64,000 bases of DNA from Escherichia coli (GCF_002854065.1 NZ_CP024147.1); one strand, 5' to 3'. Positions 22,770-26,998 are shown, numbered from the stretch's first letter. Notes: a model not told the origin generated them from the sequence alone. A program made the numbers and translations.

Positions 22770-23615
22770 ATGTCCACGACATGGTTTGTAGGAGCCGACT
22801 GGCTCGCCGAACATATTGATGACCCGGAAATTCAGATTATCGATGCCCGCATGGCGTCGCCTGGACAGGAAGATCGTAACGTTGCTCAGGAGTATCTGAA
22901 TGGACATATTCCCGGCGCAGTGTTTTTTGATATCGAAGCGCTTTCTGATCACACTTCCCTGCTTCCGCACATGCTGCCGCGCCCGGAAACGTTCGCCGTG
23001 GCGATGCGTGAATTAGGCGTTAACCAGGATAAGCACCTGATTGTCTATGACGAAGGTAATCTTTTCTCAGCCCCACGAGCATGGTGGATGCTGCGCACCT
23101 TTGGTGTAGAGAAAGTGTCGATTCTGGGGGGTGGACTTGCAGGCTGGCAGCGCGATGATCTGTTGTTAGAAGAAGGTGCAGTAGAGCTGCCGGAAGGAGA
23201 GTTTAACGCCGCGTTTAATCCTGAAGCAGTGGTGAAAGTAACCGATGTGTTATTGGCAAGCCATGAAAATACGGCGCAAATTATTGATGCCCGCCCGGCT
23301 GCACGTTTTAACGCAGAAGTTGATGAACCTCGCCCAGGTTTACGTCGCGGACATATTCCCGGTGCATTGAACGTTCCGTGGACGGAACTGGTGCGCGAAG
23401 GCGAACTAAAAACGACCGATGAACTGGATGCGATATTTTTTGGTCGCGGCGTCAGCTATGACAAACCGATTATCGTCAGCTGCGGCTCTGGTGTAACAGC
23501 AGCCGTGGTTTTGTTGGCACTCGCGACGCTGGATGTGCCAAACGTGAAACTGTACGACGGCGCATGGAGTGAATGGGGCGCGCGGGCAGATTTACCGGTT
23601 GAGCCATTGAAATAA
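22770..23615 (+). CDS. sseA: 3-mercaptopyruvate sulfurtransferase SseA (rhodanese)
   Basis: ORF track frame 22611-23615; conserved start MSTTWFVGADW at ATG 22770 (281 aa); catalytic-cysteine loop SCGSGVTAA. Confidence 0.93.
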   Translation: MSTTWFVGADWLAEHIDDPEIQIIDARMASPGQEDRNVAQEYLNGHIPGAVFFDIEALSDHTSLLPHMLPRPETFAVAMRELGVNQDKHLIVYDEGNLFSAPRAWWMLRTFGVEKVSILGGGLAGWQRDDLLLEEGAVELPEGEFNAAFNPEAVVKVTDVLLASHENTAQIIDARPAARFNAEVDEPRPGLRRGHIPGALNVPWTELVREGELKTTDELDAIFFGRGVSYDKPIIVSCGSGVTAAVVLLALATLDVPNVKLYDGAWSEWGARADLPVEPLK

Positions 23616-23629
23616 GCTTTTTACAGGCA

Positions 23630-23731
23630 ATAAAAAACCGCCGAATTTGGCGGTTTTTTATTGCTGGTCTGGTTCGCGGCCTTTCCAGCAGGTTGACTTG
23701 TGTTGCCGGAGCAACGCAGGCACCCCACAGT
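23630..23731 (-). ncRNA. Candidate antisense sRNA of ryfA copy 1 (TimR/RyfB-like)
   Basis: Minus-strand sigma70-like promoter (-35 TTGACA at 23761-23766, 17-bp spacer, -10 GAGTAT at 23738-23743); predicted 5' end carries the reverse complement of caggcaccccacagtg (23717-23732), which recurs at 23879-23894 in the ryfA leader; 3' end at the bidirectional terminator. Ends approximate. Confidence 0.45.
23632..23660. terminator. Bidirectional rho-independent terminator (sseA on plus; candidate antisense sRNA on minus)
   Basis: aaaaaaccgccgaatttggcggtttttta: GC stem aaccgcc/ggcggtt flanked by an A run and a T run. Confidence 0.8.
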
Positions 23732-23865
23732 GTTGAAATACTCTCTTTTATGCCTGGCTGTGTCAAGATAATAAACAGAGTAATTATTCAAACATGAGAG
23801 TATTATTCTTAATGGCCCTTTTCGCCGTCTCGCAAACGGGCGCTGGCTTTAGGAAAGGATGTTCC

Positions 23866-23961
23866 ATGACCGTAAATACAGGCACCCCACAGTGCTTGCT
23901 ATCGCGGCAATATCGCCAGTGGTGCTGTCGTGATGCGGTCTTCGCATGGACCGCACAATGA
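23866..23961 (+). CDS. Leader ORF (31 codons) with strong SD, translationally coupled to the downstream toxin-like ORF
   Basis: AGGAAAGGA 6 nt upstream of ATG; MTVNTGTPQCLLSRQYRQWCCRDAVFAWTAQ; its TGA stop overlaps the ATG of the next ORF (caATGA). Codons 5-10 coincide with the 16-nt antisense target. Coding status is inferred. Confidence 0.4.
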   Translation: MTVNTGTPQCLLSRQYRQWCCRDAVFAWTAQ

Positions 23962-24083
23962 AGATACGGTGCTTCTGTATCGTACTTATTGTTTCTGGTG
24001 CGCTGTTAACCGAGGTAAATAATAACCTGAGTCTCTCCGGCAACAATTTACTGGTGGTTAACAACCTTCAGAACAGCAGGTAA
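23958..24083 (+). CDS. Small hydrophobic toxin-like protein (41 aa), TimP/RyfA-type candidate
   Basis: MKIRCFCIVLIVSGALLTEVNNNLSLSGNNLLVVNNLQNSR; no own SD, start overlaps leader stop; identical amino-acid sequence in copy 2 with a single synonymous difference, whereas flanking DNA differs at many positions. Confidence 0.5.
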   Translation: MKIRCFCIVLIVSGALLTEVNNNLSLSGNNLLVVNNLQNSR

Positions 24084-24113
24084 GCCCGAATGCCGCCCTT
24101 TGGGGCGGCATAT

Positions 24114-24197
24114 TTAGATTATCCGATTCTGTTTAAAGTCACGCAAAAAACCACCCCAGCGACGTTCATAGAATGGCGCAATATGTTCGATATTAAA
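24114..24197 (-). pseudogene. Detached duplicate of the sseB 3' end (last ~25 codons plus stop)
   Basis: Minus-strand translation gives ..IEHIAPFYERRWGGFLRDFKQNRII*, identical to the C-terminus of the intact sseB at 24796-24880; no upstream coding continuation. Confidence 0.65.
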
Positions 24198-24311
24198 ATG
24201 ACCTGGCTTATTAGTCCGAATTCAGACAAATATAAACAAATCCCGCTCAATATTAAAAATACTAACCGGTAAAAGATATTACTTAAACATGTAAATTCAC
24301 TTTCTTTAAGC

Positions 24312-24415
24312 AACAAAAAACCGCCAAAATCAGGCGGTTATTTGTTGCCGGTTTGGTTCGCGGCCTCTCCAGCAGATTGACTTGTGTTGCATGAGCAACG
24401 CAGGTGCTTCACAGC
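24312..24415 (-). ncRNA. Candidate antisense sRNA of ryfA copy 2 (TimR/RyfB-like)
   Basis: Minus-strand promoter -35 TTGACA (24445-24450), 17-bp spacer, -10 GAATAT (24422-24427); 5' region complementary to caggtgcttcacagc (24401-24415), matching the copy-2 leader site caggtgtttcacagc (24560-24574) with one G-U wobble; terminator hairpin at 24318-24345. Confidence 0.45.
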
Positions 24416-24546
24416 AGAGCAATATTCGCCAGCAACTCTCTTTTTGTCAAGCAAAAGAGAGTAATTATTGTTTATTTAGCGTATTATCGACACCGGCCCT
24501 TTCCGCCGTCTCGCAAACGGGCGCTGGCTTTAGGAAAGGATGTTCC

Positions 24547-24642
24547 GTGGCCGTAAATGCAGGTGTTTCACAGCGCTTGCTATCGCGGCAATATCGCCAG
24601 TGGTGCTGTCGTGATGCGGTCTTCGCATGGACCGCACAATGA
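24547..24642 (+). CDS. Leader ORF of copy 2 (GTG start), coupled to the toxin-like ORF
   Basis: Same SD AGGAAAGGA; GTG instead of ATG; five amino-acid differences in the first 10 codons, all inside the antisense target; stop overlaps the next ATG. Confidence 0.35.
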   Translation: MAVNAGVSQRLLSRQYRQWCCRDAVFAWTAQ

Positions 24643-24764
24643 AGATACGGTGCTTTTGTATCGTACTTATTGTTTCTGGTGCGCTGTTAACCGAGGTAAA
24701 TAATAACCTGAGTCTCTCCGGCAACAATTTACTGGTGGTTAACAACCTTCAGAACAGCAGGTAA
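24639..24764 (+). CDS. Small hydrophobic toxin-like protein (41 aa), copy 2
   Basis: Same protein as copy 1 (MKIRCFCIVLIVSGALL..), one synonymous change (TTC to TTT). Confidence 0.5.
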   Translation: MKIRCFCIVLIVSGALLTEVNNNLSLSGNNLLVVNNLQNSR

Positions 24765-24795
24765 GCCCGAATGCCGCCCTTTGGGGCGGCATATT

Positions 24796-25572
24796 TTAGA
24801 TTATCCGGTTCTGTTTAAAGTCACGCAAAAAACCACCCCAACGACGTTCATAGAATGGCGCAATATGTTCGGTAATAAAGTGGCTAATTCCTTTTTCCCC
24901 TTTTTTCACCTGACAAATATCGATTGGTTCATCGCCAGGTAATGTATCGGTCGCTACACTTCCCGCCGCCTGAATAATTTCTTCGATATCACCATCGGCT
25001 TCAATGCCAATAAGTAAATTAGGCTGTGCCTCTTCGTTCTCTTTAATTGAACATATAAAAGCACGCTTCACCGGCTTAATAGTTTTAAATAAGGTGGTGA
25101 GTGAATCAATCATTTGTGCTGGCGGCTCTGCGACTTCCGATAATATTAGCGATTCACCGCCTTCCAGTACTTCCTGGCTACTCAGCGGATTCCCTTCTTC
25201 ACCAATCAACAAACTGATTTCACGCGGCATAAATTCTTTACCGGTTGGCAGTTTGGCATTAAGGAAGAGCGTTTCGCCAAGGGTCATCTCAAACAATGTG
25301 CGAACGGGCATTACTACAAATGCCTGTTCGTCTTCAACCGCCTGTTGAAGTGCTTCTAACGAGGTAAAAAAAGGAATGACGCTGGTGCCGTCTTCTTTTT
25401 CCCAATGCTGTAAATCAAGCGCACTATCTTCAACCACAGCCTCGCCCTGCGCCGCCGTACCAGGCACCCAGACGGTGGATCCCAGTAGAGTACGGAAAAA
25501 GGCCGGGCGGTGCGCCGGTTCGGTTGCTGCTTTTTCCAGCAGGTCTTCAAGTTCGTTTTTTGTTTCGGACAT
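24796..25572 (-). CDS. sseB: Protein SseB (enhanced serine sensitivity)
   Basis: ORF track frame 24796-25581; conserved start MSETKNELEDLLEKAATEP at ATG 25570-25572 (258 aa). Confidence 0.9.
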   Translation of the reverse strand: MSETKNELEDLLEKAATEPAHRPAFFRTLLGSTVWVPGTAAQGEAVVEDSALDLQHWEKEDGTSVIPFFTSLEALQQAVEDEQAFVVMPVRTLFEMTLGETLFLNAKLPTGKEFMPREISLLIGEEGNPLSSQEVLEGGESLILSEVAEPPAQMIDSLTTLFKTIKPVKRAFICSIKENEEAQPNLLIGIEADGDIEEIIQAAGSVATDTLPGDEPIDICQVKKGEKGISHFITEHIAPFYERRWGGFLRDFKQNRII

Positions 25573-25604
25573 AAGAACCACAATTCATTCAACGTTCGGG
25601 GCAC

Positions 25605-25710
<106 letters not shown>

Positions 25711-25714
25711 TAGT

Positions 25715-26998
25715 TTACGCCGTTAACAGATTAGCAATCGTGCGCACACCAAGTCCCGTAGCACCCGCAGACCACTGTTCAACCGGCGCTTTACGGTAAG
25801 TCGCCGAGCAGTCGATATGCAGCCAGCCTTGCTGATAGTTCTCAACAAAGTGCGACAGGAAGCCCGCTGCCGTGCTCGCGCCTGCCGGATACGCCGCGCT
25901 TCCGGTATTGTTCAGTTCGGCAAAGTTAGACGGCAGCTGGCTGCGGTGGAATTCCGCCAGCGGCAGACGCCAGAATGGTTCGTTCTCTTGTGAGGCACTC
26001 GCCAGCAAACGACCGGCAAGCGCATCGTCAAAACTGAACAGCGCGTGATAATCATTACCCAGCGCAGTTTTCGCCGCCCCGGTGAGGGTCGCCGCATCAA
26101 TGATCATTTCCGGTTTCTGCGCACTGGCATCAATCAGACCATCGGCAAGCACCAGGCGCCCTTCGGCATCAGTGTTCATCACTTCAACTTTTTTACCGTT
26201 GCGATAGGTGATGATATCGCCCAGCTTAAACGCATTGCCGCTGATCAGGTTATCCGCACAGCAGAGGAACAGCTTCACGCGCTTGTTCAGTCCGCGCGTA
26301 ATGGCAAATGCCAGCGCCCCGGTAACCGTTGCCGCGCCGCCCATGTCCGACTTCATCGAGTCCATAAACGCAGTCTGTTTGATGCTGTAGCCGCCGGAGT
26401 CAAAAGTGATACCTTTACCTACCAGGCACGCGTACACTGGCGCTTCTTTATCGCCAGTTGGGTTGTAATCCAGCGCCAGCAATACCGGAGAACGTTCTGA
26501 ACCGCGTCCGACGGTGTGCAGCCCCATATAACCTTGCTCACGCAGATCCTCACCTTTGGTGATCCGATAAGTCACACGATCGCCTGCGACGTTGTTGATC
26601 AGATCAACAGCACGCTGTGCCAGTTGCGATGGCCCCAGCTCTTCCGCCGGTGCGTTGATGGTGTCACGCACCCAGTCGATGATCATCAGGCGGTTATCCA
26701 GTTCCTGCCGCTGGGCATCGTCCAGATCCGGCCACTCCACTTTACGCGTGCCTTTCGGGGCTTTGTAACCTTGCCAGAATGCCCAGCAGCGATCCACATC
26801 CCAGCCTTCACCGCTTAGCTGAACATGCTTGATGCCCAGACCGTCAATCTTGCGCGCCGCACGCTGGATCAGCCCCAGATCGTCTGCCCCGTTCAAATGC
26901 AGAGTAATGCCATCATTATTAATGCTGTAAGTTGCTTTTTCTCCCCAGCGCGCGTCGGCAGGTTGGGTAGAGAGGGTAATTTTCATCGCTTCTGTCAT
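25715..26998 (-). CDS. pepB: Peptidase B (leucyl aminopeptidase family)
   Basis: ORF track 427 aa, ATG; M17 aminopeptidase metal-binding signature (NTDAEGRL). Confidence 0.95.

Follow-up and report, generated by a model that had tools for sequence, protein, structure and literature searches.

Two timP/timR units of largely separate predicted specificity between sseA and sseB

The gap between sseA and sseB in a 64,000-nt stretch of Escherichia coli DNA (NZ_CP024147.1; the window, in whose coordinates positions are given unless another record is named) very probably represents a tandem array of two timP/timR (ryfA/ryfB) type I toxin-antitoxin cassettes, the antitoxin specificities of which are largely separate. 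The gap measures 1,180 nt, and the region 23560-24900 matches at 100% the chromosome of E. coli EC1515 (NZ_CP021844.1), a urinary-tract isolate from Taiwan, by whose name we refer to the locus. Repeat finding and pairwise alignment revealed two homologous units of ~570 nt (unit 1, ~23627-24197; unit 2, ~24309-24880) at a start-to-start distance of 681-684 nt, visible as direct repeats at 23605-23645, 23632-23743, 23773-24072 and 24113-24200 with their respective partners at 24288-24328, 24316-24427, 24454-24753 and 24795-24882. Each unit contains a bidirectional terminator, a divergent ~100-nt small RNA (sRNA) gene of the TimR/RyfB type, a 305-nt ryfA RNA and the 3' end of sseB. This content had been proposed in an earlier note made from the sequence alone, and is borne out by Rfam, NCBIfam, RefSeq and timR homology; the RefSeq annotation of NZ_CP021844.1, mapped onto the window, has timP twice plus a partial SseB pseudogene. 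Both ryfA matches span positions 1-296 of 296 of the Rfam model RF00126 and exceed its gathering score of 80 bits. The two TimP open reading frames (ORFs), starting with an ATG at ryfA nt 147, score 77.7 bits (E = 5.7e-22) against NCBIfam NF040796 (toxic_TimP; cut-off 45 bits), with residues 1-39 aligned to profile positions 1-39 of 40. Toxicity of TimP, translational repression by TimR and the specificity of RyfB1 are taken from the literature in what follows, our own analysis addressing the anatomy of the locus, family membership, matched complementarity with its covariation, and population variants.

The two units differ in the stretches predicted to pair. Perfect complementarity exists between the first 16 nt of timR-1 and nt 68-83 of ryfA1, and on the + strand the two boxes form a 16-nt direct repeat. 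In unit 2, the boxes (GCAGGTGCTTCACAGC and GCAGGTGTTTCACAGC) differ at one position, which gives rise to a G-U pair; complementarity extends over 16-19 nt. Cognate duplexes were predicted at -37.4 kcal/mol (timR-1/ryfA1) and -35.7 kcal/mol (timR-2/ryfA2), compared with -25.0 kcal/mol, including 7 G-U pairs, for timR-1/ryfA2 and -15.1 kcal/mol for timR-2/ryfA1. Cognate pairs are thus favored in silico by 11-22 kcal/mol, as calculated for core windows, since long inputs (160 nt versus 45 nt) gave over-extended, unrealistic helices. As the units belong to different specificity classes (CACCC versus TGTTT, as defined by Fris et al. 2017, Genes 8:50, PMC5333039), each antitoxin should control mainly its own toxin mRNA. 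The pairing box lies 64 nt upstream of the timP ATG, and the locus displays the timPR architecture of a divergent sRNA that is complementary, at its 5' end, to the 5' untranslated region (5'UTR) of timP far upstream and that ends at an intrinsic terminator. At 12 further loci, each timP mRNA likewise has a cognate sRNA gene, with duplex energies of -35 to -39 kcal/mol.

The intermolecular helix was also compared among nine units from E. coli (three classes), E. whittamii, Escherichia sp. E1V33 and two Citrobacter genomes, with the register set by hand. Here, both partners have changed in 8 of 17 pairs. Paired cells make up 96.1%, a value that none of 500 shuffles reaches, versus 84.4% in the shuffles and 21-49% when the partner strand is slid. 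According to the proposed mechanism, each unit would transcribe a ~305-nt ryfA mRNA encoding the 41-aa inner-membrane toxin TimP and, divergently, the ~100-nt sRNA TimR. The 5' end of TimR would form a duplex of 16-19 nt with a hairpin that lies in the mRNA 5'UTR some 64 nt before the start codon, and would thereby block translation.

Identity profile, promoters and TimP

The units differ at ~14% of positions in pairwise alignment, and this divergence is non-uniform. Identity between units 1 and 2 amounts to 84% in the terminator hairpins, 88% in the sRNA bodies, 69% in the sRNA pairing boxes, 58% in the divergent promoter regions, 92% in ryfA nt 1-66 and 61% in the ryfA variable box. It is 100% in the 5'UTR beyond that box and in the ryfA terminators, with the timP coding sequences (CDSs) equal at 125 of 126 positions; past 24197 it falls to ~46%, the random level. 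The earlier description of near-identical ryfA bodies beside heavily diverged promoters and pairing regions is thereby confirmed (99-100% versus 58-69%), the per-position alignment giving no sign of uniform divergence along the unit.

Despite the strongly different surrounding promoter DNA, the sRNA -35 element TTGACA and the ryfA -10 element TATTAT are kept in both units, in line with a presumed promoter function. In unit 1, the -35 element of timR-1 lies at 23766-23761 on the minus strand (TTGACA as reverse complement at 23761-23766) and the -10 element of ryfA1 (GTATTAT) at 23800-23806, and the predicted fold of timR-1 shows a terminal hairpin followed by a U-run. For timR-2, a sigma-70-like promoter (TTGACA-18-AATATT) is found at 24450-24421 on the minus strand. 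The annotated timR of K-12 (b4811) is homologous to both minus-strand sRNA genes, its terminator is homologous to the terminator hairpin of unit 1, and its 5' end coincides exactly with the pairing box.

The TimP ORF is unbroken in every E. coli allele that we translated (9, in 6 loci). Both copies of EC1515 carry leucine at position 24 (NNNLSLSG) and the other nine E. coli TimP translated carry arginine. Within EC1515 the ryfA bodies differ at 1 of 213 positions, compared with 6 of 213 both within 23CRST026 and within GF4-3, the pattern used for the latter having matched two of its three ryfA bodies. Because the EC1515 bodies differ at a single position, and the R24L exchange is both private and common to its two TimP copies, their near-identity points to gene conversion between the units, which would have homogenized the mRNA bodies. 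Across E. coli alleles, the ryfA body varies by ~1-3%, like sseA and sseB. As judged from these alignments, the body is not exceptionally conserved; the exceptional feature appears to be how far the sRNA 5' end, the promoters and the 5' part of the mRNA have diverged.

Allelic classes and population distribution

Unit 1 agrees at 99-100% with the allele that O157:H7 carries as a single copy (100% together with the last 300 nt of sseA), and the 5' half of unit 2 corresponds to the type-2 allele found in K-12 and ATCC 25922. A third class, with the box GCAAGCGCGTCTCAGCG (the CGCGT class of Fris et al.), occurs as a single-copy allele in avian pathogenic E. coli (APEC) O18, in O111:H8 and others, as well as in E. 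whittamii, and type 1 is present also in Escherichia sp. E1V33. Because types 1, 2 and 3 are also found as single-copy alleles elsewhere, the diverged regions are, on comparison of these loci, best described as pre-existing allelic classes that are older than the array, not as products of post-duplication divergence. The earlier note had argued that the copies are kept as distinct modules and do not represent a recent neutral duplication; the matched sRNA and mRNA boxes agree with this, whereas divergence after duplication in this lineage does not hold.

A BLAST search over complete E. coli genomes, as the earlier note had suggested, detected one-unit, multi-unit and remnant strains. The ryfA body occupies 5,601 places in 5,425 of the 5,426 genomes. 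The AT-rich spacer that separates the two units (see below) was found at 2,248 places in 2,241 of them, at this locus only and twice in 7 genomes. From place totals minus genome counts, which yield estimates and not per-genome inspection, ~170 genomes (~3%) would carry two or three full units, ~2,070 (38%), including K-12, the spacer but one ryfA, that is, a deleted remnant, and ~3,180 (59%) a plain single unit. Array-bearing genomes among the matches listed came from humans, poultry, pigs, mink, wild animals and water. The order of units is type 1 + 2 in EC1515, type 3 + 2 in 23CRST026 and type 1 + 2 + 3 in GF4-3. In the latter (NZ_CP053258.1, 1416-3276), three timP genes and two sseB pseudogene fragments are present, and every sRNA has its own mRNA as its sole cognate partner (-35 to -37 versus -12 to -25 kcal/mol).

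In the junctions that we aligned (EC1515, 23CRST026 and K-12), the spacer is the same, and so is the sseB fragment, of which K-12 keeps the final 13 nt; both junctions of GF4-3 are annotated as sseB pseudogenes. The shared fragment and spacer favor a single founding event, with unequal recombination and allele exchange thereafter. In this founding event, the end of one unit, with ~81-84 nt of sseB, would have been joined via ~110 nt of filler to the terminator of the next unit; later unequal recombination and allele exchange would then have given rise to one-, two- and three-unit arrays and to deleted remnants across E. coli. Since the outgroups sampled (E. whittamii, Escherichia sp. E1V33 and three Citrobacter) are single-copy and lack the spacer, the single unit is probably the ancestral state. 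These outgroups derive from a contig scan with the strict pattern GCGGTCNNNGCANNGACCGCACNNNNAAG, which returned 7 loci and missed Salmonella, E. albertii and E. fergusonii. In E. whittamii Sa2BVA5 (3258-3429), the sseB stop codon and the ryfA terminator are separated by ~170 nt of additional sequence, which E. coli lacks.

The junction: sseB fragment, spacer and IS128

The earlier note had placed the two units head to tail. Two units are indeed present, yet they do not abut: because a 114-nt spacer without counterpart in unit 1 intervenes, 'head to tail' is only approximate, and a simple tandem segmental duplication, with the end of copy 1 meeting the start of copy 2, is not what the locus shows. 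Likewise, the detached sseB fragment does not fix the end-points of the duplication, as had been claimed, with ~110 nt of filler in the junction. Homology of the fragment to sseB ends at ~24194, corresponding to 81-84 nt of the sseB 3' end. Its translation (HFNIEHIAPFYERRWGGFLRDFKQNRII, then stop), said to be identical to the C-terminus of intact SseB (HFITEHIAPFYERRWGGFLRDFKQNRII, then stop), agrees over the last 24 residues, with two residues differing just before, next to the breakpoint.

What the spacer derives from was approached from two sides. A degenerate sseA 3' fragment, as predicted by a duplication with a period of 682, was rejected, as gapless comparison with the sseA 3' end at offsets 676-691 yielded 17-30% identity, the random level. 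An origin from mobile DNA (insertion sequence (IS), phage or plasmid) was rejected as well: the spacer has no second locus in E. coli and no phage match, and its sole match in plasmids is a 4.9-Mb record, evidently a mislabeled chromosome. The spacer also showed no similarity to the rest of the window. The idea of a duplication of the sseB-proximal unit instead of a foreign insertion thus holds as far as the repeat of a native unit with its sseB fragment and the missing mobile-DNA match are concerned, but not as a clean duplication.

The full Rfam model of 'IS128 RNA' matches the array junction, comprising the sseB fragment, the spacer and the unit-2 terminator. IS128, a predicted sRNA of K-12 with no function assigned, was reported to be patchy among strains (Skippington and Ragan 2012, PMC3318445), without reference to an array. 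Its distribution follows the presence of the array or its remnant, and the family may describe a junction scar and not an independent gene. An assignment of the K-12 genes ryfB and ryfC to this spacer proved wrong. These names denote shoB and ohsC, at another locus, and the Shigella name RyfB1 is unrelated to K-12 ryfB. K-12 ryfB had been dropped from a list of sRNAs since it encodes a small protein (PMC3318445).

K-12 and other decayed states

The 817-nt sseA-sseB spacer of K-12 is a deleted array. Its upstream unit retains the terminator, the type-2 sRNA gene annotated as timR, the promoters and the first ~17 nt of ryfA; at the junction CCGCCGT/GTTCGGTAATAAA/ATAACCTGG..., the sequence breaks off and resumes with the final 13 nt of the sseB fragment, after which come the spacer and a complete second unit. 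This second unit has a type-3 sRNA gene, yet a ryfA mRNA with a type-2 box. Because the K-12 timP mRNA carries this type-2 box, the distal timR (b4811, 2653356-2653455), ~400 nt from ryfA, is its cognate antitoxin (-35.3 kcal/mol). The proximal sRNA candidate (~2653681-2653777) directly upstream of ryfA is unannotated, of type 3 and non-cognate (-25.4 kcal/mol). It has an intact-looking TTGACA element and a terminator, is identical at 87 of 96 positions to the type-3 timR of O111:H8 and has no matching mRNA box.

Further decayed loci were encountered elsewhere. In E. coli 06-00048 (NZ_CP015229.1, 61-1600) and Citrobacter amalonaticus AUH_CA_2023_1 (~8050-8130), the sRNA box is fused to the mRNA box, with loss of both promoters and of ryfA nt 1-67, which looks like a deletion between the 16-18-nt direct repeats of the pairing boxes. 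In the 06-00048 locus, the terminator hairpin is additionally interrupted by ISEcB1, an element of the IS3 family. SY019 (NZ_CM185153.1, 412-530) has a remnant upstream unit with an sRNA-like sequence, GTTGTATTACTGCAAGTGTATCTCGTCTACTC..., that lies outside the three classes and is followed by the spacer without ryfA or an sseB fragment between; it may represent either a fourth class or a gene in decay. P276M (NZ_CP044293.1, ~1050017-1050658) carries a partial ryfA body (39% of the query) and a diverged spacer (85% identity), which seems to be another decayed state.

Comparison with known systems

The EC1515 locus is a known kind of system, published for Shigella dysenteriae and annotated by RefSeq. 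Fris et al. (PMC5333039) described there a tandem of ryfA1 and ryfA2, 95% identical, with a ~100-nt divergent RyfB upstream of each; the copies differ mainly in a 5-nt variable region, of the ryfA1-like class (CACCC, CCCCC or CGCGT) or the ryfA2 class (TGTTT), inside the sRNA-complementary stretch. RyfB1 lowered RyfA1, not RyfA2, the specificity having been demonstrated experimentally for RyfB1 only; both copies were found in few isolates, and a duplication was speculated upon. EC1515 has this sibling pair at the same chromosomal site, the host being an uropathogenic E. coli (UPEC) instead of Shigella, and since both variable regions are the same and in the same order as in S. dysenteriae, the earlier note's observation is a correct rediscovery made from raw sequence. 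The text of Fris et al. does not mention sseB; added here are the spacer, the connection with IS128 and the remnant in K-12, none of which we looked for in that text.

In Salmonella enterica, TimP is translated and toxic, and TimR represses its translation through an 18-nt pairing with the timP 5'UTR at a distance of more than 60 nt upstream of the ribosome-binding site (Andresen et al. 2020, PMC7667032); TimR destabilizes a pseudoknot that initiation requires (Eleftheraki and Holmqvist 2024, PMC11228461). Membership in the RF00126 and TimP families, the divergent sRNA, the far-upstream complementarity in the 5'UTR and the intrinsic terminator are shared with the locus described here, and the timP ORF starts at nt 147 here versus +145 in Salmonella. 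The two differ in that Salmonella has one unit, with the extra gene STM2534 between sseA and timR, whereas here two units of different specificity are found, and in the length of TimP, 41 aa as annotated here versus 38 aa reported for Salmonella.

Type I toxin-antitoxin loci that are duplicated in tandem on the chromosome and have cognate-specific antitoxins also include the ibs/sib and ldr/rdl families and zorO-orzO/zorP-orzP of E. coli O157:H7. The resemblance to zor-orz was noted by Fris et al. (PMC5333039). With all three, the locus has in common a small hydrophobic toxin, a nearby sRNA with no or partial overlap, and a short variable pairing region that discriminates paralogues. The sequences are unrelated, and what sets the present case apart is one array with a fixed junction scar, the classes of which also segregate as single-locus alleles.

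Alternative explanations

How the two units came together leaves room for a refinement of the cassette reading to which we would give about even chances, namely co-assembly of pre-existing alleles in place of an in-situ duplication that then diverged, either by capture of a horizontally acquired allele beside the resident one or by re-population of an old array through allele replacement, with trimming by unit loss. In line with this, the three classes are met with singly, in pairs of differing order and in a triple, types 1 and 3 extend to other Escherichia species, unit 1 with the adjoining end of sseA is indistinguishable from O157:H7, and the non-homologous filler at the junction is typical of an illegitimate join. 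All junctions seen, however, have the same sseB fragment and spacer, indicating a single founding event and not repeated captures, and the single-copy outgroups without spacer give no support to an array older than the genus. Such co-assembly does not contradict the explanation by two cassettes; with an old array, the single-copy 'alleles' may partly be different surviving paralogues. A recent neutral tandem duplication that is beginning to drift in this lineage would account for the near-identity of the ryfA bodies and for the 95% identity of the sseB fragment to sseB. We nonetheless judge it very improbable, as the 5' halves of the units are only 58-69% identical next to bodies of 99-100%, the halves correspond to separate alleles of other strains (unit 1 to O157:H7, unit 2 to K-12/ATCC 25922), the changes in the sRNA and mRNA boxes are compensatory, and the same junction recurs in 2,241 genomes. 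That the duplication is an artefact of assembly, a concern raised by the earlier note, can practically be dismissed. Tandem repeats of ~680 nt can be collapsed or expanded by short-read assemblers, but the ~14% difference between the units makes a mis-joined identical repeat impossible. The locus matches EC1515 throughout, and, among the matches listed, dozens of complete genomes that come from different laboratories and different hosts show the same structure, with an estimated ~170 other independently assembled genomes having at least two full ryfA; in S. dysenteriae, the tandem structure was verified by RT-PCR (reverse transcription PCR; PMC5333039).

A functionally different proposal is that RyfA1 and RyfA2 act mainly in trans as regulatory sRNAs (for instance on ompC, stress or fimbrial genes), with the variable region setting the targets and RyfB serving as an anti-sRNA. 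Overproduction of RyfA1 abolished the ompC transcript and cell-to-cell spread, and Fris et al. detected no protein from ryfA1 (PMC5333039); in UPEC, phenotypes of ryfA persisted with the TimP ORF disrupted and were attributed to the RNA, not the peptide (Bessaiah et al.). Because of these findings, ryfA RNA may have a regulatory role beyond, or instead of, toxin coding. Against a mainly regulatory function stand the intact and identical TimP ORFs of both copies, which score above the family cut-off, the intactness of this ORF in all E. coli alleles translated, and the translation, toxicity and TimR repression of TimP in Salmonella (PMC7667032). We therefore consider it rather unlikely as the main function, the two roles not being mutually exclusive. 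The missing RyfA1 protein and the RNA-borne UPEC phenotypes are, at the same time, points against two toxin-antitoxin cassettes, and others have to be placed beside them. Orthogonality is not absolute in silico, given the G-U-rich duplex of -25 kcal/mol between the type-1 sRNA and the type-2 mRNA; sRNA ends and promoters are assigned from homology and consensus, expression of both units in EC1515 is presumed, and the copy numbers across genomes are the estimates described above. The order of events is likewise deduced: alleles may have been replaced after a duplication, or a second allele may have been captured.

Going beyond the two cassettes of EC1515, we tentatively suggest, with reservations that somewhat outweigh our confidence, that the gap accommodates an expandable array in which one to three timP/timR cassettes are mutually orthogonal, with at least three classes that predate E. 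coli and are kept apart by selection against cross-reacting antitoxins. If so, single-copy alleles, the K-12 layout and 'IS128 RNA' would all be states or scars of the array, and the direct-repeat pairing boxes would provide a built-in route to delete both promoters at once. We found no paper describing this population-level picture in a limited literature search; together with the reading of the K-12 layout, it is a modest addition to what is known of the locus. The array would explain why timR of K-12 lies ~400 nt from timP with a non-cognate sRNA gene between, which bears on K-12 deletion mutants, and the three matched antitoxin/target pairs offer a natural set for testing the evolution of sRNA specificity.

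Feature coordinates and flanking sequence

The features of the array and its flanks are compiled in Table 1.

Table 1. Features of the timP/timR array and its surroundings (window coordinates, except for the K-12 junction)
Feature	Position	Strand	Evidence or remark
sseA (3-mercaptopyruvate sulfurtransferase), left flank of the array	22770-23615	+	RefSeq of NZ_CP021844.1; ORF
Terminator hairpin T_A, bidirectional (ends sseA on +, timR-1 on -)	23627-23664	.	Inverted repeat, 19-nt arms, 95% complementary, no loop gap
timR-1, RyfB1-type antitoxin sRNA, ~101 nt, specificity type 1	23632-23732	-	Homology to MG1655 timR b4811
timR-1 5'-end pairing box, + strand CAGGCACCCCACAGTG	23717-23732	-	Exact 16-nt direct repeat of ryfA1 box
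Divergent promoter region, unit 1 (type-1 allele)	23733-23811	.	58% to unit 2; 100% to O157:H7; putative promoter function
ryfA1/timP-1 mRNA	23812-24116	+	Rfam RF00126, 315.7 bits, E = 4.5e-88
TimR-binding box of ryfA1, RNA nt 68-83, with CACCC variable region	23879-23894	+	CAGGCACCCCACAGTG; classes per PMC5333039
timP-1 CDS, 41 aa, MKIRCFCIVLIVSGALLTEVNNNLSLSGNNLLVVNNLQNSR	23958-24083	+	NCBIfam NF040796; RefSeq WP_001491247.1
Detached sseB 3' fragment, pseudogene	24114-24200	-	94-95% to 24796-24882; RefSeq partial SseB pseudogene
Match to Rfam 'IS128 RNA' (array junction)	24147-24357	+	RF00125, full model, 227.2 bits, E = 2.1e-51
AT-rich junction spacer, 114 nt, 30% GC	24198-24311	.	Without counterpart in unit 1
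Terminator hairpin T_S, bidirectional, unit 2	24309-24347	.	Terminator-like sites on both strands 24319-24339; 84% to T_A
timR-2, RyfB2-type antitoxin sRNA, specificity type 2	24315-24415	-	Homology to MG1655 timR b4811, same box GCAGGTGCTTCACAGC
timR-2 5'-end pairing box, GCAGGTGCTTCACAGC	24400-24415	-	Cognate duplex of -35.7 kcal/mol
Divergent promoter region, unit 2 (type-2 allele)	24416-24492	.	95-96% to ATCC 25922 and MG1655; no alignable O157:H7 match
ryfA2/timP-2 mRNA	24493-24797	+	Rfam RF00126, 313.8 bits, E = 1.6e-87
TimR-binding box of ryfA2, GCAGGTGTTTCACAGC, with TGTTT variable region	24559-24574	+	Classes per PMC5333039
timP-2 CDS, 41 aa, protein identical to timP-1	24639-24764	+	NCBIfam NF040796; RefSeq
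sseB, intact, right flank of the array	24796-25572	-	RefSeq; ORF
K-12 junction	MG1655 NC_000913.3 2653550-2653579		Keeps last 13 nt of sseB fragment

Beyond the array, the spacer between sseB and pepB (25600-25735) contains a palindromic element resembling repetitive extragenic palindromic (REP) sequences, with sub-threshold Rfam matches to naRNA4 (40.3 bits versus a gathering score of 59.5) and ES036.

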